A stretch of DNA of 64,000 bases, from the NCBI GenBank assembly GCA_016198125.1, contig JACQJG010000009.1, positions 5,104 through 69,103 of the forward strand, given 5' to 3'. This stretch comes from Candidatus Iainarchaeum sp. Lineage in GTDB: Archaea; Iainarchaeota; Iainarchaeia; Iainarchaeales; VGJJ01. Positions 24,762 through 64,000 of this stretch are shown piece after piece. The notes under the pieces were generated by a model. That model did no database searches, was not told the DNA's origin, and saw only the letters and a program-made list of their open reading frames with translations. Position 1 is the stretch's first letter; each line of letters starts with the position of its first letter. The position numbers and the translations under genes are program-made.

Positions 24762-24785
24762 CCTTGTACCAGTACTCATTTAAAG
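24762..24785 (+). promoter_or_regulatory. CCTTGTACCAG motif plus TATA-like box (TCATTTAAAG) upstream of the aglH-alg14-alg13 operon
   Basis: Motif at 24762-24772, TATA at 24776-24785, ATG at 24819. This is one of several promoter-proximal TTGTACCA sites in the cluster. Confidence 0.45.
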
Positions 24786-24818
24786 CATGCGTTTTCCATT
24801 TCTTTTAGTGGGCTTTGC

Positions 24819-25916
24819 ATGCTTAAACTGTTGTCTAAACGGGTATTCTTTTTGCTGATTCTGGCATTCCTTATTGCACTCACCCGCATTGAAGCCTTGG
24901 TGGCCCTTATCGTATTTGTCATGTCTGCCACGCTGGTTTTTACCATTGTTCCATTTCTTGCCCACCGCATGAAACTTAGGGGTATTGTGGGAAAAGACAT
25001 GAACAAGTTCCACAAACCGGAAGTGCCAGAAATGGGGGGCATTGCAGTCATGCTGGGGTTTTTCGCAAGCGTTATTCTTGCACTCGTTTATTACGCGTAC
25101 CTCCACTTTTTTCCCGGATTGAATCTCACTGCGTTGCTTGCAGGCCTTCTCACTATTACCTTGGTGGGTTTTTTGGGCGTATTGGATGACCTGGTGGGAT
25201 GGAAGCAGGGCATCCGGCAATGGCAGCATGCCATCGTACCTGTTTTTGCAGCGCTCCCCTTGATGGCATTGCCTGAGGCGGTTGGATTCACTTCCATCAG
25301 CGTGCCTTTTTTTGGAGCGGTTCAACTGGGAATACTGTATTCTCTTGTCCTTGTGCCCATCGGCATTACTGGGGCCAGCAATGCGTCCAACATGCTTGCA
25401 GGATTTAATGGATTGGAAGCCGGCATGGGGCTTATTAATGCGTTGACTGTTTTGGCTGTTGCGTTCATTCTTGGAGAAATGGAAGCGGTTATTCTCATGG
25501 CTGGCCTGGCAGGGGCATTGGCTGCTTTTTTGTGGTTCAACTGGTATCCTGCAAAGATATTTCCAGGGGATTCACTAACGCTTATGACTGGGGCAGGAAT
25601 TGCGGCTGCAGTCATCATTGGCAACATGGAAAAAATTGGCATCATGCTGTTTGCCCTGTATTTTGTTGAGTTTGCATTCAAGGCCAAGCACAAATTCCAA
25701 AGCGAGTGTTTTGGTATTCCCCAAGCAGATGGAACCCTTAAAGCAAGCCCAAAAGGGGGAAGTGTAACCCACTGGATTATGAAACATGGAAAATTCACTG
25801 AGCCCCAGGTAACAGGCATCATTTTGACTGTGCAGGGAATTATCGCATTGATTGTATTTGTGTTATTCCTGCAGGGGTATCAGCTGGGCGTAAGCCAGGG
25901 GTTTGTGAAAGTATGA
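24819..25916 (+). CDS. aglH: polyprenyl-phosphate HexNAc-1-phosphate transferase (GPT/MraY/WecA family; AglH/Alg7-like)
   Basis: Polytopic protein with VLDDLVGWK, NASNMLAGFNGLEAG and IFPGDSLTL motifs characteristic of the family. Confidence 0.85.
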   Translation: MLKLLSKRVFFLLILAFLIALTRIEALVALIVFVMSATLVFTIVPFLAHRMKLRGIVGKDMNKFHKPEVPEMGGIAVMLGFFASVILALVYYAYLHFFPGLNLTALLAGLLTITLVGFLGVLDDLVGWKQGIRQWQHAIVPVFAALPLMALPEAVGFTSISVPFFGAVQLGILYSLVLVPIGITGASNASNMLAGFNGLEAGMGLINALTVLAVAFILGEMEAVILMAGLAGALAAFLWFNWYPAKIFPGDSLTLMTGAGIAAAVIIGNMEKIGIMLFALYFVEFAFKAKHKFQSECFGIPQADGTLKASPKGGSVTHWIMKHGKFTEPQVTGIILTVQGIIALIVFVLFLQGYQLGVSQGFVKV

Positions 25917-26359
25917 AGGTGTGCATTGCGGCTTCCGCAGGCGGGCATTTGACTGAAGTCTTGCAGGTGCATGAGGCATGGAAGAACGTGGACCATTTTT
26001 TTGTTTCGGATAAAAGGGAAAATGCCGTTGAATTGGCGAAAAAGGAAAAGGTATTCTTTGTCGCGTGCCCGCGGAGAAATCCTTTGCATTTGGCCCAAAG
26101 TTTTATGCAATCGTTCAAGCTTTTCGTTGTCCAAAAACCCGATGTAGTTATTTCCACGGGCGCAGACACTGCCATTTCTACGTGCCTTATTGCCAAACTG
26201 TTTGGAAAAAAAGTCATTTTCATTGAAAGCTATGCACGCATTTCAAGTCCAAGTCTTTCGGGCAAAATCATGTATCCATTGGCGGACCTTTTTCTTGTGC
26301 AATGGAAGCAGAACCTTTCCTTTTTTCCAAAAGCAATTTTTGCAGGGAGCGTGTTCTAA
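25913..26359 (+). CDS. Alg14-like membrane-associating subunit of a split GT28-type glycosyltransferase (PssD/Cps14F family)
   Basis: Contains MKVCIAASAGGHLTEVLQV...VVISTGADTA...IFIESYARISSPSLSGK. The start overlaps the aglH stop. Confidence 0.8.
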   Translation: MKVCIAASAGGHLTEVLQVHEAWKNVDHFFVSDKRENAVELAKKEKVFFVACPRRNPLHLAQSFMQSFKLFVVQKPDVVISTGADTAISTCLIAKLFGKKVIFIESYARISSPSLSGKIMYPLADLFLVQWKQNLSFFPKAIFAGSVF

Positions 26360-26851
26360 TTGAATATTTTTGTTGCAGCTGGAACCCACCCCCAGCCTTT
26401 TGACAGGCTATTCAGGGCATTGGACGAATTGAAAGCAAAAGGCGGTTTGAAGGACGAAGTGTTTGCCCAGACCGGTCATTCAGCGTATGTGCCGAAGAGC
26501 TTTGAAAGCAAATCTCTTTTGGACTTGAACGAGTTCAACAGGCGCTTTGCATGGGCCGACCTTGTAATCACCCATGGAGGCGCTGGAAGCATCTTGACTG
26601 CCTTTGAAGCAGGAAAAAAAGTCATGGTAGTTCCACGCCAAAAAAAATTCAACGAACATACGAACGACCATCAACTCGAACTTGCACGCGTCCTCGCAGT
26701 AGAAGGAAAGGCCTTGGAAGTCGTTGACATCAAAGACCTTGAAAAGACCATTGAAAAGGCGCGCACGTTCAAGCCGGACCTGCAAACGTCCAAGCAGGGC
26801 CTTGTCAAAGCAATTCGCGAAAAGTTAAAGGAATGGGAACGGAAAAAATGA
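26360..26851 (+). CDS. Alg13-like catalytic subunit of a split GT28-type glycosyltransferase (PssE/Cps14G family)
   Basis: Contains NIFVAAGTHPQPFDRL...ADLVITHGGAGSILTAFEAGKKVMVVPR...NDHQLELA. The TTG start directly abuts the Alg14-like stop. Confidence 0.8.
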   Translation: MNIFVAAGTHPQPFDRLFRALDELKAKGGLKDEVFAQTGHSAYVPKSFESKSLLDLNEFNRRFAWADLVITHGGAGSILTAFEAGKKVMVVPRQKKFNEHTNDHQLELARVLAVEGKALEVVDIKDLEKTIEKARTFKPDLQTSKQGLVKAIREKLKEWERKK

Positions 26852-26883: not shown

Positions 26884-27567
26884 ATGAGTCGAATAATGGA
26901 AAAACAGTACAAATACCTGGGTTTAATCACAGCGCTCTATATTACTTTTCAATTAGTATCTGATGTAACTGCAGGAAAAATTGTTCAACTTTGGATGTTC
27001 ACGGTTTCAGCAACCGTGCTTTACTTTCCATTTACCTACATATTCGCAGACGTTCTAACAGAAGTTTATGGGTATTCCCGTGCAAGACGCGTGGTCTGGA
27101 CTGTTCTCCTGTGCTCGGTCATTGCAGGCATTGTATACACTTTTGTTGTGTTATTGCCCCCGGCAATTGGGTTTGATGCGAATGACGCGTACACAAGGGT
27201 CCTTGGACAAATTCCACGCATACTGCTTGGAGGATGGATTGCGGTTTGGGTTGGAGGAATATTAAACGACTATATTCTGGCAAAGATGAAGGTGTGGACC
27301 AGGGGAAAACACCTTTGGACTCGAACGATTAGTTCTACAATTGTCGGGGAAGGGGCAAACACGGTTTTATTTTATGTCATTGCGCTTTCAGGAGTCATTC
27401 CAAACGCTTTGCTTGTCGCGTCTATTTTTTCGGGCTGGTTTCTGAAGGTTTTGGTTGAAATCGTTTTCACGCCCGTCACATACTATGTGGTGAATTGGTT
27501 GAAGAAAGCGGAAAACGAAGACTTTTACGATACGAACACCAAGTTCAATCCATTCAAAATAGAGTAA
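26884..27567 (+). CDS. yhhQ: queuosine-precursor (7-deazaguanine) transporter, YhhQ/VUT family
   Basis: Contains YKYLGLITALYITFQLVSDVTAGKIV...YFPFTYIFADVLTEVYGYSRARRVVW and six TM segments, similar throughout to the YhhQ/DUF165 family. Confidence 0.8.
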   Translation: MSRIMEKQYKYLGLITALYITFQLVSDVTAGKIVQLWMFTVSATVLYFPFTYIFADVLTEVYGYSRARRVVWTVLLCSVIAGIVYTFVVLLPPAIGFDANDAYTRVLGQIPRILLGGWIAVWVGGILNDYILAKMKVWTRGKHLWTRTISSTIVGEGANTVLFYVIALSGVIPNALLVASIFSGWFLKVLVEIVFTPVTYYVVNWLKKAENEDFYDTNTKFNPFKIE

Positions 27568-27608: not shown

Positions 27609-28241
27609 ATGCCAAATAAAGACAAGGCAATGACCTACACACCGGGCCGAAAAACCAGCGTGCTTGCCCGCATCATTTTAGAGAAAGAATTCAAGCGCGT
27701 CCTGGATGTAGGCTGCTCGAAAGGGTATCTTGGAGAAGAAACGCGCGCGCAAAATCCAGGCATTGAATTTGCTGGCATTGACGTTTCCAAGGAAGCGCTG
27801 GCCGAAGCAAAAAAATCAGGGTATGTGCAGACCATTCAGAAAGACCTCAATGAAGTGCCTCTTGCGTTTCCGGAATTGAAAGGCCCGTCCTTTGACTGCA
27901 TGGTTTTCGCCGACGTGCTCGAGCACACCCTTCAACCTTCGGAAGTGTTGGGCGCGTTGCTTCCGTTCCTGGAAAAAGACGGGCGCGTCTTTGTGGCATT
28001 GCCCAACGTGGCCTTTCTGCCCCTGCGCGTTAAACTTTTGCTGGGAAAATGGGATTACAAAAAGTCCGGAATTATGGACGAGTCCCATGCACGCTTTTAC
28101 AATTTAAAATCTGCGCGCGCATTGCTTGAAGAAAATGGCCTGCACACAGTTCGCATGGAGTCATTTCCCAAGCGCATTCCAAGCTGGATTTGGCCTTCCC
28201 TGTTGGCAATCACTTTTTTGTTTGAGTGCGAAAGGAAGTGA
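27609..28241 (+). CDS. class I SAM-dependent methyltransferase
   Basis: SAM motif I is VLDVGCSKGYLG and the post-I acidic residue context is FAGIDVS. Motif FADVLEH is present. Confidence 0.75.
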   Translation: MPNKDKAMTYTPGRKTSVLARIILEKEFKRVLDVGCSKGYLGEETRAQNPGIEFAGIDVSKEALAEAKKSGYVQTIQKDLNEVPLAFPELKGPSFDCMVFADVLEHTLQPSEVLGALLPFLEKDGRVFVALPNVAFLPLRVKLLLGKWDYKKSGIMDESHARFYNLKSARALLEENGLHTVRMESFPKRIPSWIWPSLLAITFLFECERK

Positions 28242-29379
28242 GCGCACGCTCATACACTTTTTCAATGCCTTCTCCCAATGCATTCAATGAATGCCTTTTT
28301 TCTGCAATGGCCCGGGCCTTTTTTTCAAGTTCAAAGCGCTTTTTTGGATGCTCCATTAAATCCAGCATAGCCTCTGCCAACGCATTTACATTATTTGGCG
28401 GAACAAGAACGGCCGCGTCTTCCACGATATTTGGAATTTCTCCGATGCGTGTGGCAATAACGGCTTTTCCGGCTGCAAGGGAGTCAATGAGAGAAGAGGA
28501 AGTGGTTGCCTCGTAAGTGAATGCGTGCACGAGGAATTGGGATGCGTTGTAGATGGATGGCGTGTCAGAATAATTCACGAGGCCCATGAAGTGCACGCTT
28601 TTTTCCAATCCAAGTTCATGCGCCAGGGCTTTCAGATACTCCAATTTGGCTCCGCCCCCGTACAATAAATAATGATAATCTGCGTGTTTGCCCAGCACTT
28701 TTTTGAATGCACGCAAAACAAGTTCAAGCGCTTGGGCGTTGGTGGCGTGCATGGGCTTCAACGATACTAAAAGGTTTGGGCCATAATTTTCAACCAGTTC
28801 TTTTTTTCCAGGACCAGGCTTGAACAATTCCAGGTCCACTGAAACCGGCAACACCATGATTTTATTTTTTTCAATGCCCCAGGGCACAAGGTAATGGTCC
28901 ACTGCATGCCGGCTCATGGAAATAAAATGGTCTGCCGGTATGCGCGGAAGCAGGGTGCGATTCAGCCAGTAAATGAGTTTGGTGTTGAGGCTGGCATTTT
29001 TTTCGCTGATGTATTCCACTCCCACCACAAGCGGAATATTCAGGGCCTTTTTTACCTTGGCGCCAACGAGTGCTGGAAAGATATCATTCTGCGCGTGCAC
29101 AAGTTTTGCGTTGAATTCTTTGGCCAAGCGGACGGCTTCGTTGGCTGTGAATACATACTCGTACTTGTGCAATGCATGATGTCCAAACGTTGGAACCATG
29201 TGCACGCGGATGTTGAATTCTTTTTCTTCCTTGGGCCAGCGCTTGCATGCAGGCGTAAATACGAGTATTTCATGACCCCTTCGGGAGAGTTCTTTGAGGA
29301 GATTGGAACAGTATACTTCTCCCCCTCCCTGGTCCCACACGTTCAGGGAATACGTGTGAGTAATGTAAAGAATGCGCAT
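28210..29379 (-). CDS. glycosyltransferase family 4
   Basis: The MRILYITHTY...GGGEVY N-terminus and a C-terminal E-x7-E-like region (EATTSSSLIDSLAAGKAVIATRIGEIP) are typical of GT4 (GT-B fold). Confidence 0.8.
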   Translation of the reverse strand: MRILYITHTYSLNVWDQGGGEVYCSNLLKELSRRGHEILVFTPACKRWPKEEKEFNIRVHMVPTFGHHALHKYEYVFTANEAVRLAKEFNAKLVHAQNDIFPALVGAKVKKALNIPLVVGVEYISEKNASLNTKLIYWLNRTLLPRIPADHFISMSRHAVDHYLVPWGIEKNKIMVLPVSVDLELFKPGPGKKELVENYGPNLLVSLKPMHATNAQALELVLRAFKKVLGKHADYHYLLYGGGAKLEYLKALAHELGLEKSVHFMGLVNYSDTPSIYNASQFLVHAFTYEATTSSSLIDSLAAGKAVIATRIGEIPNIVEDAAVLVPPNNVNALAEAMLDLMEHPKKRFELEKKARAIAEKRHSLNALGEGIEKVYERALTSFRTQTKK

Positions 29380-29428: not shown

Positions 29429-30334
29429 ATGAAGGCAAAACGCACGCGAAGTACAGGGCAACGCGTAAAGGCCAGCATTGTTGTTGCAACAAAAAACCGG
29501 TTGCCCTTGCTGCAAAAAGGCCTTAACGCCATTCTTTCATTGAACGGCCCTTCGTGTGAAGTCCTTGTAATTGATGACGGGAGTTCTGATGAAACGTGGA
29601 ATTACTTGCAGGAGCAGGCCAGAAATCACCCCAACCTGAAGATACTGCAAAACACTTCTTCGCAAGGCCCGGCAGTGGCCCGCAACAAAGGCCTTCAACA
29701 CGCCAAAGGAGAAATTGCAATCATCATGGACGATGACTGCATTCCGTCCAAGGAATGGCTGGTACAATTAGTAGAACCTTTTGATCAAAACAAAAAGATT
29801 GCAGTCACGAGTTCTTTTGGTTATTATGGAGGCACGAGCACGGCGTACAGAATGGATGTTTTCCGCAAAATAGGATTCTTTGATGAAGCGTTTCCTGCAA
29901 ACTACCGGGAGGACACGGACACTATTTTCAAAATATTAGATGCAGGTTTTGAAGTCAAAGTCGTCAAAGCCCCGTTCGAGCACATTCACCCACCCCCAAA
30001 AGGAAAATGGAACCGAATTTCGTACATTGTCAGGCGCGTGTGGATTCACCGCTTTGACCCCCTTTTGTACAAAAAGCACCCTTCACGGGGCAAGGAATTT
30101 TTTGACGTGAAATGGGGCTTCATCCGAAATCCATTGCAGGACTTCAAGGCTGCCACAGGCCTTTGGTGGAGCAGGAAAAACTTTGTTTTGAGTTCGCCCC
30201 AGGGAATTAAATTCCTTGAAAACAAGAGCCCTGTACATGCACTCCTCATTGTACTTGCAGGAATCGCTTACATGTGGCTTGTAAAAGTGCCAAGATTGTA
30301 TGGAAGCTTTGTATATGGAAAGCTTTTACTGTAG
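29429..30334 (+). CDS. glycosyltransferase family 2
   Basis: Contains SIVVATKNRLPLL...VLVIDDGSSDET...IIMDDDC (DxD), the GT-A fold pattern. Confidence 0.8.
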   Translation: MKAKRTRSTGQRVKASIVVATKNRLPLLQKGLNAILSLNGPSCEVLVIDDGSSDETWNYLQEQARNHPNLKILQNTSSQGPAVARNKGLQHAKGEIAIIMDDDCIPSKEWLVQLVEPFDQNKKIAVTSSFGYYGGTSTAYRMDVFRKIGFFDEAFPANYREDTDTIFKILDAGFEVKVVKAPFEHIHPPPKGKWNRISYIVRRVWIHRFDPLLYKKHPSRGKEFFDVKWGFIRNPLQDFKAATGLWWSRKNFVLSSPQGIKFLENKSPVHALLIVLAGIAYMWLVKVPRLYGSFVYGKLLL

Positions 30335-31118: not shown

Positions 31119-31140
31119 TGAAAGGTCATGGTTGAATGGT

Positions 31141-31590
31141 ATGGGCATTCCAAAAACAGGGGTTTCAAAGAAAGGCTTGGCCATGCATTACTCGGTGGGA
31201 GCGCTTATAAGGAAAGGTGCGCGGTACCTTCTTATTGACAGGGTAAAACCGCCTTACGGGTATGCCGGCATTGCAGGACACGTGGACGAAGGCGAAACGC
31301 CTGAACAGGCATTGGTGCGCGAGACAAAAGAAGAAAGCGGGCTTGAAGTAAGAAAATTCAACCTTCTTTACGATGAAGAACTTGATTGGAATTACTGCAG
31401 TAAAGGCATAACCGCGCACCAGTGGTATTTTTATGAGTGCAAAACAGAAGGAAAAGTGAGGCGGGATTCCAAGGAAGCAAAACAGATCGGATGGTTTGCT
31501 AAAAAGGAACTGGAAAATCTTGCACTTGAACCTGTTTGGACGTACTGGTTTCAAAAGCAAGGGCTGATAAAAAAAAGAACAAGGGGTTGA
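31141..31590 (+). CDS. NUDIX hydrolase
   Basis: Nudix box GHVDEGETPEQALVRETKEESGL (G-x5-E-x7-REUxEExGU). The start is uncertain (TTG 31132, ATG 31141 or ATG 31183). Confidence 0.8.
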   Translation: MGIPKTGVSKKGLAMHYSVGALIRKGARYLLIDRVKPPYGYAGIAGHVDEGETPEQALVRETKEESGLEVRKFNLLYDEELDWNYCSKGITAHQWYFYECKTEGKVRRDSKEAKQIGWFAKKELENLALEPVWTYWFQKQGLIKKRTRG

Positions 31591-38329: not shown

Positions 38330-38331
38330 GG

Positions 38332-41258: not shown

Positions 41259-41259
41259 G

Positions 41260-47958: not shown

Positions 47959-48000
47959 AGTATGATAGTTTTGGCGTGCGAACTTAAAAAATGAAATGGT

Positions 48001-57458: not shown

Positions 57459-59560
57459 AAGCAGTTTTCGCGCAAAAAGGAAAAATTGTGGTAGAGGACA
57501 TTCCGGTTCCTGCATGCCCTGAGAATGGAGTGCTTGTGGAAACGCATTACTCGGTGGTAAGCCCTGGAACCGAGGGGCGCGCGCTAAAGGGAAGCGGGAC
57601 CAGTGCAACCCAACTCGCACAGCAAAAGAACGCATTCAAGACTCTTAAAGACCACGTGGACCGCAAAGGCGCCGGTTTTGCATGGAAGCTGGTGGAAGAA
57701 CGCTTGAACCGTTTAACTCCTTTGGGGTACAGCTGTGCAGGGCGCATTGTGCAGGTGGGAAAAAAAGTGGACCAGTTAAGCGTTGGAGAATGGGTGAGTT
57801 GTGCCGGAACGGGTTTTGCCAATCATGCAGGTTTTGCCGCAGTTCCAAAAAATCTTGTGGCGCGCATTCCAAGCGGAGTGAGTGCAGATGAAGGTTCGCT
57901 TGCAACATTGGGTGCAGTGGGCATTCATGCCCTGCACCAGGCAGAATTGAAGGCCGGGGAAAACGTGGCCATTATTGGTTTGGGTTTGATGGGCATGCTC
58001 TCGCTCGCACTGGCAAAAGCCCTTGGGTTCAAGGCATGGGGAATTGAATTAAATTCTGAGCGGCGCGGCCTGGCCAAAAAAATGGGACTGGAAGCGTTCT
58101 CATTGGAAGAATGCGAACATTCCATTCGCGCGCAGACCCATGAAAAGGGCGTTGATGCCGTCATCGTGGCGGCCGCAGGAAACGATGATGAGGCCGTGCG
58201 TTTGGCCAACAGCCTGTGCAGAAACCGCGGGACGATTGCAGTGCTTGGAGTTGTTGGATTGGACTTGGACTGGAGTGCCGCATACCACAAGGAAATAAAA
58301 CTTGTCATGGCGCGCAGTTACGGTCCCGGAAGGTATGATGCGCAGTACGAATTGGATGGAATGGATTATCCTTTTGAGTACGTGCGTTTTACGGAACAGC
58401 GGAACATGGGACTTTTTTTGGACCTCTTGAAGGAAAAGAAAGTGGACGGCCGCGCCTTTATTACTGCGGTGTTTGAAGTGGATGATGCGCCCAAGGCATA
58501 CGAGGCCGCAATGAAGGCGGATGGCCTGGGCGTGCTTTTAAAATACAGTGGGCATGCGGTCACTGAAAAAAAAATGCAATTGCACAAAACCGTACAACCG
58601 GTTGAAGGCAAAATCGGCACTGCCCTTATAGGACCCGGACACTTTGCAAGGGAAATCCACGTTCCAAACCTGTACAATGACAAGCGCTTTGACGTGAGGG
58701 CAGTTGCAGCAGGAACGGGTGCCAGTGCAATGGAAACCGCCAGGCTCTTGAACGCGCCCATTGCTACAACGGATTATGCGGAGGCGCTAAGCGGTTCAGG
58801 CGTTAAACTTGCATTCATTTCCACGCCCCCTGAAAGGCACGCGGAAATGGTGCTTGCAGCGCTCAACGCGGGCAGGCACGTTTTTGTAGAAAAACCATTG
58901 TGCGTGAATGAAGAAGAATTGAAGGCCATTGAAAAGGCAAAGGACTTGCACCCTGAATGCATGGTCATGGTGGGGCACAACCGGCGCTACTCGGCGTGCG
59001 CGCAAAAACTAGTGGAGTGGCTGGACAACCGCGAAGGCCCTTTGATGGCCCAGTACAACGTGCGCATTCCCCCTTCAGAGGGCACGCGCGTTCCTTTATG
59101 GAGCGGCGGACGCATTGTGGAGGAGATGACCCACTTCCTGGACTTTTTTGAGTTCATCGCGCAAAGCCCTGCAACCAGCCTGCATGCGCGCACGTTGGGT
59201 GGATTGAAACCGCCCCATTCCATTGACTCCAATATAGTGGTGAATGTTTCCTTTGAGAATGGCGCGCAGTGCACGCTCGCATTCACCACGCTTGCAGGCC
59301 CTTCCGCCTGCAAGGAGGAACTTATTGTGCACAAAGGCGGGGGAACAGCAAGTGTAAGGGATTTTTTGGAATTGGAAGTGCAGGATTCCCTGCATGGAAA
59401 GGAAAGATGGACGTTCAATGGAAAGGGCTGGAAGGAAGAATTGGACGCGCTTGCGCATGCCCTGCAGGGAACGCGTTCCATTGAACGCGAATGGCAGTCC
59501 AGTATCCGGGCCACGGCCGCGGCATTTGAAATTGCAGCACAAATAAGGGGATTGCATTGA
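57455..59560 (+). CDS. bi-domain oxidoreductase: N-terminal Zn-ADH/MDR-like plus C-terminal Gfo/Idh/MocA-like (copy 2)
   Basis: Paralog of the upstream gene (LVETHYSVVSPGTE, VAIIGLGLMGML, IGTALIGPGHFA, VGHNRRYSA). ATGA overlap. Uses CGN Arg codons, unlike copy 1. Confidence 0.75.
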   Translation: MKAVFAQKGKIVVEDIPVPACPENGVLVETHYSVVSPGTEGRALKGSGTSATQLAQQKNAFKTLKDHVDRKGAGFAWKLVEERLNRLTPLGYSCAGRIVQVGKKVDQLSVGEWVSCAGTGFANHAGFAAVPKNLVARIPSGVSADEGSLATLGAVGIHALHQAELKAGENVAIIGLGLMGMLSLALAKALGFKAWGIELNSERRGLAKKMGLEAFSLEECEHSIRAQTHEKGVDAVIVAAAGNDDEAVRLANSLCRNRGTIAVLGVVGLDLDWSAAYHKEIKLVMARSYGPGRYDAQYELDGMDYPFEYVRFTEQRNMGLFLDLLKEKKVDGRAFITAVFEVDDAPKAYEAAMKADGLGVLLKYSGHAVTEKKMQLHKTVQPVEGKIGTALIGPGHFAREIHVPNLYNDKRFDVRAVAAGTGASAMETARLLNAPIATTDYAEALSGSGVKLAFISTPPERHAEMVLAALNAGRHVFVEKPLCVNEEELKAIEKAKDLHPECMVMVGHNRRYSACAQKLVEWLDNREGPLMAQYNVRIPPSEGTRVPLWSGGRIVEEMTHFLDFFEFIAQSPATSLHARTLGGLKPPHSIDSNIVVNVSFENGAQCTLAFTTLAGPSACKEELIVHKGGGTASVRDFLELEVQDSLHGKERWTFNGKGWKEELDALAHALQGTRSIEREWQSSIRATAAAFEIAAQIRGLH

Positions 59561-61119
59561 CTCAGCACAACGTGTACTGGGAACACGCCTTGGAGAAAGT
59601 GCCGCACCTCTTAACACTGCTTGACACCAACCCTCATTCCCCAACATTTGGGTGTTTTGACAAGCGTTACTGGCACCGCAAAACGCGGGATTATGTGAAC
59701 GCGCGCATGCAGGAAGGCGTGTACACGCTTGCATTGTTGTACACTGTTCAACACCCAGAAAACAAATGGTTTTCAGCGCCCTTTGTAAAAGAATGGGCGC
59801 TTGCAGGCATGAATTTTTGGGCCAGGATTCAAGGCAGGAAAGGCGGTTTTGATGAGTACCTGCCCAATGAAGACAATTACGATGCCACTGCGTTTTCATC
59901 GTATGCCATTGCACGCGCGCATGAACTGCTGGAATGCCGTGATGAAAGCGTTTTGAATGCACTGGAAAACGCCGGAAAGTTTTTGCACGCACATGAAGAA
60001 CCCTTTGTAGCCAACCACGAAGCGGGTGCGGGTGCGGCCCTGCAGTGGATTTCCATTGCAACGAAAAAAGAAAAGTACGCGGAATGGGCCAAGAAAAAAA
60101 TAGAGAACCTTCTTATAAACCAGCAGGCCGAGGGATGGTTTTCCGAATACAACGGCTTTGACGTCGGGTATCACACTTTTTCTTTGTATTATTTGAACGC
60201 ATACTATGTGGCAGCGCAACACGCATGGACGGAAGAAGCCCTGAAAAAAGCATTTTCTTTTTTTGCATATTTTGTGCACCCGGATTGCTCGGTTGGAGGC
60301 CATTATGGAAGCAGGGAAACCTACTTTGTACTGCCAACGCCTTTTGAACAGTGGGCGCAAAAAAGCGCGTTGAACGGCGCCTTGGCGCACGCACTGCGCA
60401 GAGGCCTGGAAACCGGAGCGCTTGCAGGGCCTCTTTCATTTGACGACCGGTATTGTGCGGACGCGCTTTACCCTTTTCTGGAATGCGCCCAATTACACCC
60501 TGTTGAAAAAAAGGCGTCCCTGCCTTTTCAGGGAAACGACTTTGACGAATATTTTGAGGGTGCAGGAATGCTTGTGTCCAGGCATGGAAAGTATTACACT
60601 ATCGTGAACGCGCGCAATGGAGGCATTGGCAAGCATTTCATAGGAGAAAAACTTGCGTGGAACGACACCGGATGGGTGTTCGAGCAGAATGGAACCTTGT
60701 ATTGCACCCATGGACCTTCCATTGGATTCAATCCCGTGAAAAAAAACGAGGCCGTGGTGCGCGGGCATTTTTACGGGAAAAAATCCGTGCTTCCAAGCCC
60801 TTCAACACTTGCGGGTTTGCGTGCACTCAACGCCATTGGATTGGGCTCCCATACCAAGAAAATGGTCCGCAACAAACTTATATTAGACCAAAAACCATCG
60901 GCCTTTGAATTCGAACGCAGGATTGCTTTCACAGAGCACGGCACCGAAGTCCAGGATTCTTTCGGGAAGAATGTTCCTGTTGAAAAACTCGCGCTTACCG
61001 CAAACTTTTCAACCCTTTATTCCACGAGCCTGGGTTTGTGGCATTCAAACGCAACGCCTATTCCCCCACCCCACGTGGAATGGAAGGGAAATTCAGCTTG
61101 CATGCGCGTGCAAGGCTAA
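59557..61119 (+). CDS. hypothetical alpha/alpha-toroid-like protein (heparinase II/III- or C5-epimerase-like context)
   Basis: 520 aa. Contains FGCFDKRYWHRKTRDY and aromatic/acidic helical repeats (GGFDEYLPNEDNYDATAF, EGWFSEYNGFDVGYHTF). In my experience this type of protein accompanies bi-domain oxidoreductases in bacterial polysaccharide loci. The assignment is context-based. Confidence 0.3.
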   Translation: MTQHNVYWEHALEKVPHLLTLLDTNPHSPTFGCFDKRYWHRKTRDYVNARMQEGVYTLALLYTVQHPENKWFSAPFVKEWALAGMNFWARIQGRKGGFDEYLPNEDNYDATAFSSYAIARAHELLECRDESVLNALENAGKFLHAHEEPFVANHEAGAGAALQWISIATKKEKYAEWAKKKIENLLINQQAEGWFSEYNGFDVGYHTFSLYYLNAYYVAAQHAWTEEALKKAFSFFAYFVHPDCSVGGHYGSRETYFVLPTPFEQWAQKSALNGALAHALRRGLETGALAGPLSFDDRYCADALYPFLECAQLHPVEKKASLPFQGNDFDEYFEGAGMLVSRHGKYYTIVNARNGGIGKHFIGEKLAWNDTGWVFEQNGTLYCTHGPSIGFNPVKKNEAVVRGHFYGKKSVLPSPSTLAGLRALNAIGLGSHTKKMVRNKLILDQKPSAFEFERRIAFTEHGTEVQDSFGKNVPVEKLALTANFSTLYSTSLGLWHSNATPIPPPHVEWKGNSACMRVQG

Positions 61120-61205: not shown

Positions 61206-62666
61206 ATGCCTGTAAAAATCATGATGTTGAATCCCCCAAGCAAGTACGCCAAGAATGTAGTGCGCGACCTGTTCTGGGGATGCTGGTGCAAGGGCCAGCG
61301 CATTGCTTCCGCCAAGTTTCCGCCCACTACCCTGTTGTGCCTGGATGCAGTGGCGGAAAAAGAAGGCCATACGTCTGTTTTGGCTGACTCCCAGGCAGAA
61401 GACCTGTCTTTTGAACAGGTAAAGGAAATTGTGCGCAAAGAGAAACCGGATGCCGTGCTCATCCCCTCTGCAACCATGACTTTCGCAGAAGACATGGACA
61501 CGCTTGCAGACCTCAAAAAAGAAGTGGATTTTTACTCGATGAGCTTTGGAACCCATGTAACGTTTGAAACCGAGACTGCATTGAAAAATGAATCCCTGGA
61601 CATTGCGATTCTGCGCGAAGCCGAGGCCACGCTTGCAGAATTGTTGAACGTGATTGATAAAGGCGAAAAACTGGATGGCGTGAAAGGAATCGCGTTCCGT
61701 GAGAACGGACAAATCCGCATCAACGAACCCAGGCCCTGGATTCAAAACCTGGATGAATTGCCGTTTCCAAACCGGAAAAAAATTATAAATTATTCCTATT
61801 TCAATCCCCTGGTAAAAAAACTTCCCTGGACCACGGCAGTCACCTCAAGAGGGTGCCCTGCCAGGTGCAATTACTGCACTTCTCCAACGTTTTACGGGAA
61901 CACGTGGCGCGCGCGCAGTGCCGAGAGCGTGGTGGCAGAAATGGAAGAAGCAGCAAAGCTTGGGTTCAAGGAAATTTTTTACCGCGATGAAACATTTCCT
62001 GCAGACCGCAGGCGCGTGGTTGAACTATGCAATCTGATAAAAGAGCGTGGCCTTGAAATGAGCTGGATTTGCTCTTCAAGGGTAAGCACCATGGACAGGG
62101 AATTAATGCAATTAATGCGCAACGCCGGCTGCCACATGATCCGGCTTGGAATTGAATCAGGAAACCAGCGCGTCTTGAACAACATCAAAAAGGGAGCAAC
62201 GGTTCAACAAGCCGAAAATGTATTCACCTGGTCCCATGAAATTGGAATGGAAACCCATGCACACCTGATGATGGGCAACATTGGGGAAACCATGGAAACC
62301 ATCAACGAAACCATTTCATTCATCAAACGCGTGAATCCCACCACCATTACTGTAGGCGCGTTCACTCCCTATCCTGGAACGCCCTTGTTTGAGGAGGTCA
62401 AGCGCCAGGATGCAAGCATTGGAGACGGAACGCAAAGCGATTTAAGCCGCGTTCATTCAACGGGCTTTTTCAGCAAGTACATTTGCGGCATGTCCGACCA
62501 GGACGTTGGAAAGGCCGTAAGGCGCGCATACAAGGAGTTCTATCTCCGGCCTTCCTATATTTTGCAGCGCCTGACAGGCGTGCGTTCCGTGGATGAATTC
62601 AGGCGGCTTGTAGCCGCTGGAATCGAGGTAACCCATTTTGCCACGGGAAACGATGACAGCGAGTAA
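61206..62666 (+). CDS. cobalamin(B12)-binding-domain radical SAM enzyme (paralog 4, NPP-type N-terminus)
   Basis: Contains MPVKIMMLNPPSKY..., TSRGCPARCNYCTSP and LGIESGNQRVLNNIKKG. The track start is GTG at 61188; the ATG at 61206 is preferred. Confidence 0.85.
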   Translation: MPVKIMMLNPPSKYAKNVVRDLFWGCWCKGQRIASAKFPPTTLLCLDAVAEKEGHTSVLADSQAEDLSFEQVKEIVRKEKPDAVLIPSATMTFAEDMDTLADLKKEVDFYSMSFGTHVTFETETALKNESLDIAILREAEATLAELLNVIDKGEKLDGVKGIAFRENGQIRINEPRPWIQNLDELPFPNRKKIINYSYFNPLVKKLPWTTAVTSRGCPARCNYCTSPTFYGNTWRARSAESVVAEMEEAAKLGFKEIFYRDETFPADRRRVVELCNLIKERGLEMSWICSSRVSTMDRELMQLMRNAGCHMIRLGIESGNQRVLNNIKKGATVQQAENVFTWSHEIGMETHAHLMMGNIGETMETINETISFIKRVNPTTITVGAFTPYPGTPLFEEVKRQDASIGDGTQSDLSRVHSTGFFSKYICGMSDQDVGKAVRRAYKEFYLRPSYILQRLTGVRSVDEFRRLVAAGIEVTHFATGNDDSE

Positions 62667-62670
62667 GAGG

Positions 62671-62700
62671 CGTTTTTGTACCAAAAACGGCTTTTAAAGG
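62671..62700 (+). promoter_or_regulatory. perfect inverted repeat CGTTTTTG-TAC-CAAAAACG immediately upstream of the TATA-like box CTTTTAAAGG
   Basis: Two 8-bp arms that are exact reverse complements, with a 3-nt spacer (62671-62689). TATA at 62691-62700. ATG at 62735. Confidence 0.5.
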
Positions 62701-62734
62701 AGCATGAAGGAATCCATCAGGGTGTGAGTGAAGA

Positions 62735-64000
62735 ATGAAAGTACTGTTAATGACCACCAACGTGCGTCCGCAACTCAAAATCAGCGAAATGCCGCTCATA
62801 ACCCCGCCTTTGAACCTCATGTACGTGGGCGAGTTTTTGAGGCAAAACGGCCACGAACCCAAAATAGTGGATGCCCACGGCCACAACTACCTGATGGATG
62901 ACGTTATTCGCATTGCAAAAAAATTTGAACCTGGAATGATTTGCGCAAGCGTGTATTCCACAGACCTGCGCTTTTGCCACTCGTATTTGAAACAAGTCCG
63001 CGGCGCATTGCCTGGCGTGAAAATTGCGGTTGGCGGCATTCATTCCACAAACCTTCCTGAACAGACGCTGCACGAGTTTGAAATGATTGACTTCATTATC
63101 CGCGGCGAGGGAGAACTTACAACCAAGGAGCTTGCAGATGCCCTGGAAAAAAACAGGCCGCTTTCAGAAGTAAAAGGCATTTCGTACAGGGACGAACACG
63201 GGCACGTACGCCATAACGCAGACCAGCCCACCATCATGGATTTGGATTCCATTCCAATTCCCGGAAGGGATTTGATTGACACGCGCATTTACTATTCAAA
63301 AGTGGCCAAGCGCAATCCCATTGACACGCTTATTACAACGCGCGGCTGCCCTTTTAGGTGCAGTTTTTGCCCGCGCCTGGACAATGACTTCAGAAAGTAC
63401 CGCATGCGTTCTCCTGAAAATGTAGTGGAGGAACTCAAATTCATCATGGAAGCAGGGGCGAAGAACATTGACTTTTACGATGAAACGTTTACCCTGGACA
63501 AGGAGCGCGTGAAAAAAATATTTGAATTGGCAGACAAAGAAGGCCTGGACTTTGACTTCCGCGCGCGTACAAGAGTGAATGCAGTGGACAGAGAATTGCT
63601 TGAATTGTTTGCCCAGCACAACTGCGACACCATTGGGTATGGAATTGAATCGGGAAACCAGCGCGTGCTGGATGAAATCGGAAAAGGCATTACCCTGGAG
63701 CAGGTTAAAACAGCGGTTGCGCTCACGAAAAAAAACAACATCAATGTGCTGGGCTTTTTTGTCGTGGGCCTGAAGGGCGATACTCCTGAGTCCATTCAGG
63801 ACACCATTAACTTTGCATGCAAGCTCAACACGGAATTTGCAACGTTCAATTACGCCATGCCTTACCCTGGTTCCGAGGATTACCTGACAGCCAAAGCCAA
63901 TGGAACCCTGCAAGGAGATTGGGGCATGGACAAACCCACTCCATGGATCAAACTGCCCTGGATGAACAAGCACGGCGATGTAATCAAGTGGGCGGACAAG
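62735..64000 (+). CDS. cobalamin(B12)-binding-domain radical SAM enzyme (paralog 5), 3-prime end beyond the window
   Basis: Absent from the ORF track because no stop is reached. My translation from the ATG at 62735 is open to nt 64000: MKVLLMTTNVRPQLK...TTRGCPFRCSFCPR...YGIESGNQRVLDEIGKG... Confidence 0.85.
   Translation, partial: MKVLLMTTNVRPQLKISEMPLITPPLNLMYVGEFLRQNGHEPKIVDAHGHNYLMDDVIRIAKKFEPGMICASVYSTDLRFCHSYLKQVRGALPGVKIAVGGIHSTNLPEQTLHEFEMIDFIIRGEGELTTKELADALEKNRPLSEVKGISYRDEHGHVRHNADQPTIMDLDSIPIPGRDLIDTRIYYSKVAKRNPIDTLITTRGCPFRCSFCPRLDNDFRKYRMRSPENVVEELKFIMEAGAKNIDFYDETFTLDKERVKKIFELADKEGLDFDFRARTRVNAVDRELLELFAQHNCDTIGYGIESGNQRVLDEIGKGITLEQVKTAVALTKKNNINVLGFFVVGLKGDTPESIQDTINFACKLNTEFATFNYAMPYPGSEDYLTAKANGTLQGDWGMDKPTPWIKLPWMNKHGDVIKWADK

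Follow-up and report, generated by a model that had tools for sequence, protein, structure and literature searches.

The 64,000-nucleotide stretch analyzed here (the window) belongs to a Ca. Diapherotrites/Iainarchaeota MAG, an uncultured DPANN archaeon, and its part from 22.6 to 64 kb is a chromosomal N-glycosylation (agl) island, with housekeeping genes on its left flank. Pfam profile searches placed the AglB/STT3 oligosaccharyltransferase (705 aa) at 22636-24753 (+), with 76.7 bits to STT3 and 27.1 bits to AglB_core-like, WWDEG at residue 515 and about 11 hydrophobic segments. It is followed by an initiating polyprenyl-phosphate HexNAc-1-P transferase of the GPT/AglH type at 24819-25916 (+; Glycos_transf_4, 116 bits, nine TM segments), orthologs of which sit next to AglB and Alg14 in related loci, and by a split glycosyltransferase (GT) pair comprising Alg14 at 25913-26359 (+; 72.4 bits) and an Alg13-type protein at 26360-26851 (+; Glyco_tran_28_C, 69.7 bits). 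Next come the class-I SAM methyltransferase (MT) MT_a at 27609-28241 (+; Methyltransf_23/12/31) and GT4_a at 28210-29379 (-; Glycos_transf_1 and Glyco_transf_4), whose orthologs (228-373 bits) lie upstream of GT2_a-rS1 in several loci. GT2_a at 29429-30334 (+; Glycos_transf_2, 112 bits), anchored by one C-terminal TM segment, is the first gene of the rS1 operon, and its orthologs (196-278 bits) lie upstream of rS1 in many loci. It is followed by MT_b at 30348-31118 (+; Methyltransf_11/25) and MT_c at 32570-33469 (+; Methyltransf_11/23), the latter directly upstream of rS1.

The first of the B12-domain radical SAM (rSAM) genes, rS1, occupies 33581-35053 (+; PF04055, 79 bits; PF02310, 42 bits) and is identical to MBI4043474.1 of a Ca. 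Diapherotrites MAG. Downstream lies GT2_b at 35095-36051 (+; Glycos_transf_2, 125 bits), which has two C-terminal TM segments and aligns over residues 2-254 (about 80% of its length) to the archaeal N-glycan mannosyltransferase structure 6yv7, and then GT4_b at 36048-37172 (+), in which GT4 domains were found and for which the best NCBIfam hit was Agl16 (114 bits, below the cut-off). These are followed by GT4_c at 37169-38329 (+; Glycos_transf_1, 90.7 bits) and GT2_c at 38284-39009 (+), a polyprenyl-phosphate sugar synthase-like GT2 of the DPM1/AglJ/ArnC type, with sub-cut-off NCBIfam scores to dolichyl-phosphate hexose transferase (135 bits) and AglJ (123 bits), and with Pyrococcus Dol-P-Man synthase 5mlz (91 bits), ArnC and GtrB as its closest solved structures. 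On the opposite strand are GT4_d at 39012-40238 (-; Glycos_transf_1, 141 bits), a SPASM/twitch-like rSAM gene at 40269-41282 (-; SPASM PF13186, 55.8 bits; Radical_SAM PF04055, 54.6 bits), GT2_d at 41260-42213 (-; Glycos_transf_2, 73 bits) and rS2 (-; PF02310, 86 bits; PF04055, 85 bits), whose open reading frame spans 42214-43806, although public gene calls give 497 aa, which puts the start near 43707.

The remaining part begins with rS3 at 43885-45321 (+), the most divergent paralog, in which the B12-binding and Radical_SAM domains were also found by Pfam and which is identical to MBI4043483.1 of the same taxon. It is followed by an LPG_synthase_TM (flippase-like) membrane protein at 45305-46288 (-; PF03706, 112 bits) and by a 615-aa polytopic membrane protein at 46285-48132 (-) with about 10 TM segments by hydropathy analysis, which had no Pfam or NCBIfam hit, so that the label GT-C-like given in the preliminary description was not confirmed and the protein is a candidate GT-C or polymerase. 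MT_d lies at 48001-48711 (+; Methyltransf_11), a protein of up to 536 aa without a TM segment or any Pfam or NCBIfam hit lies at 48606-50216 (+), and a DedA/VTT-domain membrane protein lies at 50171-50827 (+; VTT_dom, 88 bits). The operon that ends in rS4-rS5 starts with a nucleotide-sugar 6-dehydrogenase at 51780-53084 (+; UDPG_MGDP_dh N, central and C domains) and continues with GT4_e at 53024-54223 (+; GT4 domains) and a 369-aa protein of unknown function at 54220-55329 (+), a distant relative of the hyp520 family (family profile, E 1e-6) with a weak C5-epim_C hit (E 0.02). Two tandem ADH_zinc_N + GFO_IDH_MocA fusion oxidoreductases (55314-57458 and 57455-59560, +), 38% identical to each other, precede hyp520 at 59557-61119 (+), rS4 at 61206-62666 (+; both domains found by Pfam) and rS5 at 62735-64000 (+; PF04055, 104 bits; PF02310, 77 bits). 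The cluster continues past the window, since rS5, cut by the window end, is 474 aa long in the public sequence and is followed by another GT2 and a seventh rSAM gene.

The gene content thus confirmed the observation made in the preliminary description, namely that a glycan-assembly cluster next to aglB carries five B12-binding rSAM genes and one SPASM rSAM gene. All gene classes listed there with a family assignment were present, including four GT2, five GT4 and four class-I MTs, the five B12-rSAM genes carried both PF02310 and PF04055 above the gathering scores, and the AglB gene ends just before 24762, the start given there. The six CxxxCxxC motifs also exist, but the positions attached to them were gene boundaries; the true positions are 34226-34249 for CPWNCTFC (rS1), 42994-43017 (-) for CPFKCIFC (rS2), 44434-44457 for CPFPCTYC (rS3), 61854-61877 for CPARCNYC (rS4), 63347-63370 for CPFRCSFC (rS5) and 41088-41111 (-) for CNLKCPLC (SPASM gene). 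Genes not listed there comprise Vut_1, NUDIX, Q_salvage, the two oxidoreductase fusions and four proteins with no family above Pfam's cut-off, one of which (50981-51634) had only weak sub-threshold DUF7523/ACT hits. Six rSAM genes among about 35 genes far exceeds a genome-wide expectation of roughly 1-2% of genes, a figure that is our estimate rather than a computed value.

The preliminary description had proposed that its reading would fail if the enzymes fell inside well-characterized families unrelated to glycans, and none of the six did so, all being far below every NCBIfam cut-off. The five B12-rSAMs share 26-35% identity, indicating ancient paralogs of at least three lineages with different partner genes rather than a recent expansion, and HpnJ was the nearest family for all five. 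For rS1, the HpnJ profile (TIGR03471) aligned end to end at 339 bits against a cut-off of 578; rS1 belongs to a 45-67%-identical family and is 33-34% identical to a genuine HpnJ, against 23-28% to its neighbors in the cluster. HpnJ grouped with the rS1 family as its sister in a neighbor-joining tree, which had no bootstrap and did not include BchE, GenK, Cds and Grs sequences. The HpnJ scores were 235 bits for rS2 (BchE, 193 bits), only 116 bits for rS3 and 257 bits for rS4, all below the cut-offs. The SPASM gene reached at best 150 bits against a cut-off of 380, with only five Cys in its C-terminal domain, no CX2CX5CX3C motif, and GDGT-MAS, BlsE and BtrN as weak PDB relatives. The AF2 model of rS1 (pLDDT 87.9) was most similar to AprD4, a sugar diol dehydratase, followed by TsrM and OxsB, a sugar ring-contraction enzyme.

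The same description had named absence of the rSAM-GT linkage from related genomes as a second ground for abandoning the idea, and the linkage proved strongly conserved, so that the clustering is not incidental. Among 80 species-level genomes with rS1 homologs (DPANN, Hydrothermarchaeota and a few bacteria), a GT lay within 3 kb of the rS1 homolog in 72 of 80 loci, a GT2_b ortholog (150 bits or more) lay directly downstream in 48 of 66 loci with enough flank, a GT4_b ortholog lay downstream of rS1/GT2_b in 30 of 62, and a class-I MT lay within 1.5 kb in 15 of 80. In seven loci the Alg14/Alg13 pair, with Alg13 adjacent, lay directly upstream of the rS1 homolog, AglB, GPT, Alg13 and rS1 occurred in one locus in seven cases, and in one locus (L060) AglB through GT2_b formed one uninterrupted same-strand run. 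Moreover, GT density fell from 3.75 to 1.0 per 10 kb with distance from rS1. Bacterial relatives also sit in glycan loci, including a Deltaproteobacteria MAG (GT9, DUF362-Fer4, the rSAM, a GT2_b-like gene and Glycos_transf_4), a Fibrobacterota MAG (GT9, the rSAM, a polysaccharide deacetylase and a GT2) and Lawsonia intracellularis plasmid 1 (GT2 genes, heptose-type genes and five class-I MTs, with a class-I MT gene overlapping the end of the rS1-like gene).

For rS4, only about 20 cluster representatives (50%-identity clusters) scored above 350 bits, all at 57% identity or less and the full-length ones at 36-43%. In 80 metagenome loci with rS4 homologs, a hyp520 homolog within 3.5 kb was present in 34 and a DPM1-like GT2 in 52, with one or the other or both in 60, and in two loci (L094 and L104) the rS1 and rS4 modules lay back to back. 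The alpha/alpha-toroid-like (lyase/epimerase-like) assignment of hyp520 rests on weak profile hits: a faint Ulvan_lyase_N hit on the identical public gene, and Pec_lyase hits in six of 15 family members, with C5-epim_C and GH88 also appearing, while the structure prediction reached only pLDDT 35. Clear Ulvan_lyase_N hits were obtained on similarly placed proteins of about 475-500 aa next to B12-rSAM genes in loci L084 and L088, but their homology to hyp520 was not examined directly. Relatives of rS2 (38-48% identical) were found next to STT3 (L084), next to envelope-type genes (L085) and in a molybdopterin oxidoreductase cluster that is not a glycan context (L086). Relatives of rS3 occurred in Woesearchaeota and Nanoarchaeota glycan clusters (L088 and L089), while one bacterial relative (L087) was solitary. 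The LPG_synthase_TM family lay next to B12-rSAM genes in L084 and L088, and homologs of the SPASM gene (111-164 bits) occurred in six rS1 loci and one rS4 locus (L104).

Taken together, the enzyme-glycosyltransferase pairings recur in well over a hundred other genomes, and the best reading, in which we have fairly good confidence, is that the rSAM enzymes are integral glycan-tailoring enzymes acting on lipid- or nucleotide-linked sugars, not bystanders, pointing to an oxygen-free modification of cell-surface sugars that we did not find described. What the analysis demonstrates is the ancient paralogy of the five B12-domain enzymes and the recurrence of those tested (rS1, rS2, rS3, rS4 and the SPASM gene) beside GT genes in other genomes, whereas the reaction steps that follow are inferred. 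In the core module rS1 occupies a fixed place in a conserved operon, AglB-GPT-Alg14-Alg13-(GT2_a, MT)-rS1-GT2_b-GT4_b. In it, GPT and Alg14/13 would put the first two sugars on dolichol (pyro)phosphate, although, according to the Agl24 paper, the split Alg14/13 genes of DPANN may be EpsE/EpsF-like and transfer Glc or Gal rather than GlcNAc. Then rS1 would use a 5'-deoxyadenosyl radical to remodel the carbon skeleton of a sugar that is either already on the lipid or is the donor used by its constant partner GT2_b, and GT2_b and GT4_b would extend the chain. In the accessory module, which in this genome lies downstream of the UDP-sugar dehydrogenase and the two oxidoreductase fusions, the conserved set of hyp520, rS4 and a Dol-P-sugar-synthase-type GT2 would remodel a lipid-phosphate-linked monosaccharide, probably uronate-derived, which would be flipped (LPG_synthase_TM or DedA candidates) and transferred outside the cell. 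In this view rS2, rS3, rS5 and the twitch-like SPASM enzyme are variable tailoring steps.

The interpretation in the preliminary description was partly supported: the rSAM enzymes appear to belong to glycan assembly, but the predicted heavily C-modified sugar or lipid-carrier chemistry (C-methylation, ring contraction, oxidation or cross-linking) is inference only. The analysis did not discriminate between a sugar, its nucleotide donor and the lipid carrier as substrate, and no biochemical or glycan-structure data exist for any organism carrying these genes. For the chemistry, we favor HpnJ/OxsB-type rearrangement or ring contraction, about equally with C-methylation, ahead of AprD4-type deoxygenation. 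Cobalamin may or may not be used by rS1; binding was not shown, DPANN archaea are not known to make cobalamin, and AprD4, the closest solved structure, has the same N-terminal domain but does not use B12. The preliminary description also stated that characterized archaeal Agl pathways do not use such enzymes, and literature searches found no paper linking rSAM enzymes to archaeal AglB pathways.

The nearest family, HpnJ, proposed to ring-contract the glucosamine head group of bacteriohopanetetrol, itself acts on a lipid-linked sugar head group. A genuine hpn locus shows the same Pfam triad of class-B rSAM, GT2 and LPG_synthase_TM, the last lying between hpnI and hpnK. However, HpnI and the hpn-locus LPG_synthase protein are not detectably orthologous to the GT2 and LPG_synthase_TM genes of the window, so that the HpnIJK parallel is one of architecture, not orthology. 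No deacetylase (the HpnK or ArnD equivalent) was identified in the window. The inferred logic of the rS4 module likewise parallels both ArnC/ArnD/ArnT and HpnI/HpnK/HpnJ.

To characterize the gene content of the island, a gene model was built from the open reading frame (ORF) list, and 38 products were scanned against Pfam. Results revealed that window 22.6-64 kb contains AglB/STT3 (22636-24753), a Glycos_transf_4 (GPT-type) initiating transferase (24819-25916), Alg14 (25913-26359), an Alg13-type Glyco_tran_28_C protein (26360-26851), four GT2 and five GT4 glycosyltransferases (GTs), four class-I SAM methyltransferases (MTs), a UDPG/MGDP dehydrogenase, an LPG_synthase_TM protein, and a DedA/VTT protein. 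Five genes (rS1 to rS5) combine PF02310 (B12-binding) with PF04055 (Radical_SAM), both above the Pfam gathering scores, and one combines PF04055 with PF13186 (SPASM). The observation made in the preliminary description, a glycan-assembly cluster next to aglB with five B12-binding and one SPASM radical SAM (rSAM) genes, is therefore confirmed; all six CxxxCxxC motifs that it listed are present, although the coordinates attached to them were gene boundaries. Its GT-C-like label for the 615-aa membrane protein gained no support, as no GT-C family match was obtained. Two tandem proteins of about 700 aa (55314-57458 and 57455-59560), 38% identical to each other, fuse a zinc-ADH-type Rossmann domain (ADH_zinc_N) to a GFO_IDH_MocA oxidoreductase, an unusual architecture for sugar oxidoreductases. 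Four further proteins have no family above the Pfam cutoff, one of which (50981-51634) has only weak subthreshold DUF7523/ACT hits, and relaxed Pfam searches of these four and of an unannotated 294-aa ORF just upstream of AglB gave only marginal hits. Among the proteins without matches, a soluble ORF of up to 536 aa (48606-50216) has no hit in any library and overlaps the end of the class-I MT gene MT_d by about 100 nt, so that its start is uncertain; its DVDH...HPH motifs faintly recall CE4 deacetylases, which would imply an HpnK/ArnD-like role, but this is speculative.

Three genes look out of place, namely, Vut_1 (26884-27567), NUDIX (31132-31590), and Q_salvage/DUF2419 (31592-32557). These genes, a YhhQ-type Vut_1 transporter and a Q_salvage hydrolase plus a NUDIX hydrolase, resemble a 7-deazaguanine/queuosine salvage set and sit inside the tightly packed glycan operon with gaps of 1-13 nt. 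Vut_1 and Q_salvage have no counterparts in the 160 related loci examined, while NUDIX has only three weak matches (24-35 bits, in loci L064, L079, and L100). Their presence is unexplained, with preQ0/archaeosine salvage or clearance of nucleotide or 5'-deoxyadenosine by-products being possible roles. The left flank (1-19 kb) is ordinary chromosome, carrying SMC, ribosomal proteins L10 and L1, FtsZ, and KsgA. A lone 5S rRNA gene (18933-19048) lies immediately before, and overlaps the nominal TTG start of, a 900-aa S8 subtilase with four Big_7 Ig-like repeats (19000-21708), which is probably secreted or surface bound and a likely AglB substrate. GC content is flat at 45-50% across the cluster, the only spike (57% at 20-22 kb) lies in the protease repeat region, and no tRNAs were found, so that a mobile or laterally acquired island, as judged from composition, was not supported. 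Exact-sequence matching to public contigs (locus L002, 8971-11329; locus L003, 2505-5364) revealed that the cluster continues past the window end, where rS5 is 474 aa long and is followed by a GT2 (308 aa, GT2_b-like with C-terminal transmembrane [TM] helices) and a seventh rSAM gene (CNARCSHC motif, SPASM-like), which is cut by the contig end.

Considering the individual assignments, AglB is supported by PF02516 (76.7 bits; cutoff, 24.5), PF22627 (27.1 bits; cutoff, 27), a WWDEG motif at residue 515, and about 11 TM segments. Alg14 (PF08660, 72.4 bits) and the GT28 C-terminal domain (PF04101, 69.7 bits) are encoded by adjacent genes, as in a split chitobiose-forming GlcNAc transferase; the transferred sugar was not assayed, and the Agl24 study places split homologs from DPANN and Euryarchaeota with EpsE/EpsF-like sequences, EpsE/EpsF transferring Glc or Gal. 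For GT2_c, the best NCBIfam hits are polyprenyl-phosphate GTs (DPM1/AglJ/ArnC/GtrB type) but fall below the cutoffs (135 against 375 and 123 against 325), the closest solved structures are Dol-P-Man synthase (5mlz), ArnC, and GtrB, and C-terminal TM helices are lacking, a combination that does not settle its family membership. The public proteins identical to rS1 and rS3 (MBI4043474.1 and MBI4043483.1) are annotated only as "radical SAM protein" from a Candidatus Diapherotrites archaeon MAG, on a 118-kb contig. For rS4, the GTG start at 61188 gave no exact match, and public gene calls use the ATG at 61206.

The five B12-domain proteins share only 26-35% identity, indicating that they are old paralogs rather than a recent expansion. 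Membership of the paralogs in characterized families unrelated to glycans had been named in advance as grounds for rejecting a glycan role, and a search against NCBIfam revealed that none reaches any curated cutoff. The best model for all five is HpnJ (TIGR03471; cutoff, 577.6 bits), with scores of 338.8 for rS1 (aligned end to end), 257.3 for rS4, 234.7 for rS2, 227.0 for the truncated rS5, and 115.5 for rS3. BchE (TIGR02026) is second for four of the five and fifth for rS3, at 94-193 bits against a cutoff of 481, and P-methyltransferase and other class-B families follow at much lower scores; the "anaerobic Mg-protoporphyrin cyclase" labels that JGI gives to some homologs are generic. GrsA/GrsB and calditol synthase Cds (PMC6305003) were not included in these comparisons. 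The SPASM gene (40269-41282) is likewise an orphan, with a best hit of 150 bits against a cutoff of 380, while the tetraether lipid synthase Tes/GDGT-MAS model (NF045702) scores 50.8 against 450. Its PF13186 score (55.8 bits) exceeds the cutoff of 21.5, yet its C-terminal domain has only five Cys (264, 281, 282, 323, and 326) and lacks CX2CX5CX3C, leaving its status as a full SPASM domain undecided; it is better described as twitch-like, and its weak PDB relatives include the sugar and cyclitol enzymes BlsE and BtrN. An AlphaFold model of rS1 built on 23 homologs was confident (pLDDT 87.9), and its best PDB match was the sugar diol dehydratase AprD4, followed by TsrM, the ring-contracting OxsB, MgmA, CysS, and TokK; AprD4, TsrM, OxsB, CysS, and TokK superposed at query-normalized TM scores of 0.63-0.71. 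The architecture is thus that of class-B rSAM enzymes, although cobalamin binding was not measured, for which no universal sequence signature exists, and AprD4 has the same domain but is cobalamin independent. A tblastn search of plasmid records gave genuine HpnJ genes with 33-34% identity to rS1, and in a neighbor-joining tree (without bootstrap support or other class-B outgroups) HpnJ groups with the rS1 family, apart from the rS2/rS4/rS5 group and the rS3 group.

To assess whether linkage with GTs is conserved, the absence of which from related genomes had been specified beforehand as evidence for incidental clustering, we first examined rS1. The rS1 family is tight, with the listed close homologs being 52-64% identical, and spans Aenigmatarchaeota, Iainarchaeota, Micrarchaeota, Pacearchaeota, Nanoarchaeota, Hydrothermarchaeota, and Asgard archaea. 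In total, 80 species-level genome loci were retrieved, with matches 41-67% identical to rS1, and their ORFs were labeled by phmmer against the proteins of the window. A GT lies within 3 kb of the rS1 homolog in 72 of 80 loci, the ortholog of the membrane GT2 GT2_b (≥150 bits) is directly downstream in 48 of 66 loci with enough flank, and the ortholog of GT4_b follows in 30 of 62. Homolog labeling used window proteins as references and stop-to-stop ORFs, and most loci come from MAGs, with some "bacterial" contigs (for example, the Chloroflexota loci L073 and L079) possibly being misbinned archaeal DNA. Alg13 lies upstream on the same strand within 10 kb in 19 loci and directly abuts rS1 in seven, whereas AglB, GPT, Alg13, and rS1 share one locus in seven cases; in locus L060, AglB-GPT-Alg14-Alg13-GT2_a-rS1-GT2_b is one uninterrupted run. 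As an internal control, GT density falls from 3.75 to 1.0 per 10 kb with increasing distance from rS1. SDR-type nucleotide-sugar epimerase/dehydratases occur near rS1 in 42 loci; this family was spotted by single-linkage clustering of neighborhood ORFs, which merged the GT and rSAM families and was used for no other purpose. In addition, a class-I MT is often inserted next to rS1.

Bacterial members of the rS1 family also sit in glycan loci. A Deltaproteobacteria MAG has GT9, DUF362-ferredoxin, the rSAM, a GT2_b ortholog, and Glycos_transf_4, and the DUF362 plus 2x[4Fe-4S] ferredoxin-domain protein (locus L063, 8733-9968), lying directly upstream of the rS1-like gene, is a candidate dedicated electron donor for the rSAM. 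A Fibrobacterota MAG has GT9, the rSAM, a polysaccharide deacetylase, and a GT2. The 27-kb plasmid 1 of the pig pathogen Lawsonia intracellularis (NC_008012.1; 4621-19223 of locus L090) carries an rS1-like rSAM (39% identity), annotated in RefSeq only as "radical SAM protein," with an overlapping class-I MT gene, as well as a second, SPASM-like rSAM, four further class-I MTs, three GT2 genes, GalE, and SIS/GHMP-kinase/HAD genes of a heptose-type pathway. This is the only cultivable organism found with a member of the family.

The rS4 protein has few close relatives, since only about 20 cluster representatives (50%-identity clusters) score above 350 bits, at 57% identity or less and at 36-43% for the full-length ones, whereas about 9,000 cluster representatives match at E ≤ 1e-30. 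Among the relatives of rS4 are giant proteins with four tandem B12-rSAM modules (P0393, 2331 aa; P0403, 2096 aa; P0412, 2279 aa; and P0449, 1982 aa). In 80 metagenome loci found with a family alignment, a homolog of the upstream gene hyp520 lies within 3.5 kb in 34 loci, a GT2_c-like GT2 lies within 3.5 kb in 52, one or the other is present in 60, and another B12-rSAM is present in 21. In two of these loci (L094 and L104), the rS1 module (Alg14-GT2_b-rS1) and the rS4 module (hyp520-rS4-GT2) lie back to back. The hyp520 family gives only weak hits to alpha/alpha-toroid families (Pec_lyase in 6 of 15 members, plus C5-epim_C and GH88), a family profile found no relative in the PDB by sequence, and a single-sequence structure model (pLDDT 35) was unusable, so that no fold search was run on it. 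Similarly placed proteins of ∼475-500 aa next to B12-rSAM genes in archaeal loci L084 and L088 hit Ulvan_lyase_N clearly, their homology to hyp520 not having been examined directly, and the 369-aa protein at 54220-55329 is a distant relative.

Relatives of rS2 and rS3 are 38-48% identical and come from archaea, CPR bacteria, Omnitrophota, and others. Of six contexts sampled, three archaeal ones are clear glycan clusters, two of them next to STT3: L084 (flippase, STT3, rSAM, LPG_synthase_TM, Ulvan_lyase_N-like protein, GT2, nitroreductase-MT, GT2, rSAM), L088 (nearly the same set plus a SPASM rSAM), and L089 (STT3, GT2, epimerase, MT, rSAM). The nitroreductase-MT fusion (about 450 aa; L084, 12784-14154; L088, 6324-7673) thus recurs next to the B12-rSAM/Ulvan_lyase_N-like/GT2 genes in two distant archaeal glycan clusters but is absent from the window. 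One CPR locus has envelope-type neighbors, with a LytR_cpsA_psr gene upstream and three large proteins without family hits downstream, the last with a PTPS_related domain, while the other two contexts are unrelated. Homologs of the SPASM gene scoring 111-164 bits occur in six of the 80 rS1 loci and in one rS4 locus (L104), and rS5 was not examined separately.

The analysis itself established gene families, gene order, conservation, and similarity ranks, whereas the mechanistic reading that follows is inferred. In this view, rS1 would be an obligatory, conserved step of lipid-linked oligosaccharide assembly that comes after the GPT and Alg14/13 steps, is functionally paired with GT2_b, and acts either on the growing dolichol-linked glycan or on the donor that GT2_b uses, whereas the rS4 triad looks like remodeling of a Dol-P-linked monosaccharide before flipping and external transfer. 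A genuine hopanoid side-chain locus on a Burkholderia sp. PAMC 26561 plasmid (4866-10710 of locus L091) reads hpnJ-hpnI-LPG_synthase-domain protein-hpnK-hpnI, such that a flippase-like PF03706 protein also accompanies HpnJ and HpnI; the trio of class-B rSAM, GT2, and LPG_synthase_TM is the one found here, which supports a mode of action on a lipid-linked sugar. As for chemistry, no expression or chemical data exist for any of these genes, and we do not go beyond a ranking, in which rearrangement or ring contraction and C-methylation are about equally likely and AprD4-type deoxygenation is less likely. The interpretation in the preliminary description, i.e., an undescribed radical chemistry on the sugar or lipid carrier in a glycan locus, is partly supported. 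A more far-reaching reading, considered unlikely at present, is that the rS1 family represents a previously unrecognized, widely conserved step of N-glycan core assembly in DPANN, Hydrothermarchaeota, and some Asgard archaea, performing an HpnJ/Cds/OxsB-type radical ring contraction or rearrangement on a dolichol-linked sugar, so that glycoproteins of these lineages would carry a carbocyclic (cyclitol-like) or otherwise skeleton-rearranged unit near the conserved core of the N-glycan. In that case, rS4, the alpha/alpha-toroid protein, and the Dol-P-sugar synthase would form a second, modular system of radical remodeling on the lipid carrier, and the two would together define a new, anaerobic branch of glycan biosynthesis shared with some bacteria, for example, on Lawsonia plasmid 1.

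Among the alternatives, the best surviving one concerns only the chemistry and sits within the glycan-tailoring model, namely, that the B12-domain rSAMs are ordinary class-B C-methyltransferases of the GenK/GenD1/Fom3 type that use methylcobalamin to methylate unactivated sugar carbons, the glycan being simply C-methylated. This is possible, considering that most characterized B12-rSAMs are methylases, that all five genes carry PF02310 plus PF04055, that secondary NCBIfam hits include the PhpK and Sden_1168 P-methyltransferases, CysS/TokK-type enzymes, and MgmA, that TsrM, MgmA, CysS, and TokK are among the top structural matches, and that GenK-type C-methylation of aminoglycoside sugars is an established precedent. 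However, neither HpnJ nor BchE is a methylase, the best structural match is a dehydratase, class-I MTs are already abundant in the cluster and often lie next to rS1, and no methylase family cutoff is approached.

It is doubtful that the rSAMs act on the lipid rather than the sugar, modifying the dolichol/polyprenol carrier or membrane lipids like Tes/GDGT-MAS, GrsA/B, the GDGT methylases, or HpnP/HpnR and merely sharing a neighborhood with GT genes. Several class-B and SPASM rSAMs are lipid modifiers (PMC13459092), the best PDB sequence match of the SPASM gene is GDGT-MAS (7tol, 53 bits), the "ladderane lipid" B12-rSAM family TIGR04072 appears among weaker hits, and lipid-carrier chemistry was also allowed for in the preliminary description. 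Nevertheless, TIGR04072 scores 96-146 against 360 and HpnR 63-114 against 650, the Tes model is similarly far below its cutoff, the rS1 family keeps the same GT2 partner in bacteria and archaea, whose lipids differ, rS4 is coupled to a Pren-P-sugar synthase-like GT2 and a lyase/epimerase-like protein, and DPANN archaea mostly lack lipid synthesis. Even less likely are peptide or protein modifiers, which would mature a RiPP or methylate/cross-link S-layer or other glycoproteins in the manner of Mmp10/MgmA or SPASM peptide maturases, with the GTs glycosylating the same peptide. SPASM domains and many class-B rSAMs do occur in RiPP pathways, weak hits to ApyD, rSAM_ocin_1, and MgmA were seen, and a GT4 family named for its association with rSAM peptide systems (TIGR04157) gave weak hits, but all those rSAM hits are far below the cutoffs, intergenic gaps of mostly 110 nt or less leave no obvious room for a precursor peptide, the SPASM domain is reduced to a twitch-like form as in the small-molecule enzyme BtrN, and the conserved partners (GPT, Alg13/14, and a DPM1-like GT2) are lipid-linked-sugar enzymes. 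Incidental clustering of housekeeping rSAM genes in a variable island, for which the nonglycan contexts of some rS2 and rS3 relatives and the presence of Vut_1, NUDIX, and Q_salvage could be cited, is largely refuted by linkage conserved across phyla and both domains, by the decay of GT density, and by operon-like spacing with overlaps.

Archaeal N-glycosylation is regarded as the evolutionary root of the eukaryotic pathway, and its known enzymology consists of glycosyltransferases, class-I methyltransferases, and nucleotide-sugar enzymes. Full-text searches found no paper connecting rSAM enzymes with archaeal AglB pathways or with DPANN glycosylation, and the Agl24 study does not mention rSAM neighbors. 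A conserved rSAM step lying between the Alg13/14 step and the next GT in whole phyla of uncultured archaea would add a new reaction type to lipid-linked oligosaccharide assembly and predicts unusual sugars on DPANN cell surfaces, where contact with hosts is central to the lifestyle of these organisms. The finding also assigns a biological context to several large orphan branches of the B12-rSAM superfamily, gives a defined minimal gene set for heterologous reconstitution (GPT-Alg14-Alg13-rS1-GT2_b), may clarify the unproven HpnJ and Cds ring-contraction chemistry, and, through the Lawsonia plasmid homolog, links the family to the surface glycan of a veterinary pathogen.

Among known systems, the ArnC-ArnD-ArnE/F-ArnT logic, in which a polyprenyl-phosphate-linked monosaccharide is remodeled before flipping and transfer, offers an analogy only: the GT2 genes next to rS4 homologs resemble GT2_c, and flippase-like (LPG_synthase_TM and DedA) and polytopic membrane proteins are present in the island, but the remodeling enzyme would be an rSAM plus an alpha/alpha-toroid protein rather than a deformylase. 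According to a 2026 review (PMC13459092), both HpnJ and the archaeal rSAM enzyme calditol synthase Cds (Sulfolobus acidocaldarius) are proposed, but not proven, to contract a lipid-linked hexose to a cyclopentitol. Cds, reported there to act on membrane GDGT lipids of thermoacidophiles, is conceptually the nearest archaeal precedent for the rS1 hypothesis, no sequence comparison with it having been made; the context here is AglB-dependent glycosylation in DPANN archaea. The sugar-acting class-B and related enzymes AprD4 (PDB 6fd2), OxsB (5ul2-4), and GenK/GenD1 share the three-domain architecture (an N-terminal Rossmann/B12-like domain, the rSAM barrel, and a C-terminal helical domain) and modify sugar carbon skeletons by radical chemistry, with AprD4 being the best structural and sequence match in the PDB and OxsB close behind; however, sequence identity is only 13-20%, the AprD4 NCBIfam model scores 81-122 bits against a cutoff of 500, and those enzymes work on soluble antibiotic or nucleoside intermediates in bacterial secondary metabolism, not in a primary protein-glycosylation pathway. 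HpnJ, with HpnI and HpnK in bacteriohopanetetrol cyclitol ether biosynthesis, is the nearest curated family of rS1, and its proposed reaction acts on a lipid-linked hexosamine (PMC13459092), but rS1 is not an HpnJ equivalog and archaea make no hopanoids. Orthology of the partner genes was also rejected, as there was no NCBIfam HpnI hit and only an 11-bit phmmer hit to GT2_b, and the hpn-locus LPG_synthase protein gave no hit to the LPG_synthase_TM gene of the window. No HpnK-like deacetylase was found in the window, where the gene is instead embedded in an AglB/GPT/Alg13-14 N-glycan operon. The characterized archaeal Agl clusters (Haloferax, Methanococcus, and Sulfolobus; Agl24, Agl16, AglJ, and AglB) share with the island AglB with a WWDxG motif, a GPT-type initiator, an Alg14/Alg13-type second step, a candidate AglJ/DPM1-like Dol-P-sugar synthase, an Agl16-like GT4, class-I MTs, and a nucleotide-sugar dehydrogenase. 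In the literature searched, none of these characterized pathways uses an rSAM enzyme, whereas here an Agl-type N-glycosylation pathway has conserved rSAM modules, inferred to be tailoring modules, built in, with six or seven such enzymes present and one of them, rS1, being a conserved core component across DPANN and Hydrothermarchaeota, with close (∼55% identical) homologs also recorded in Asgard MAGs.
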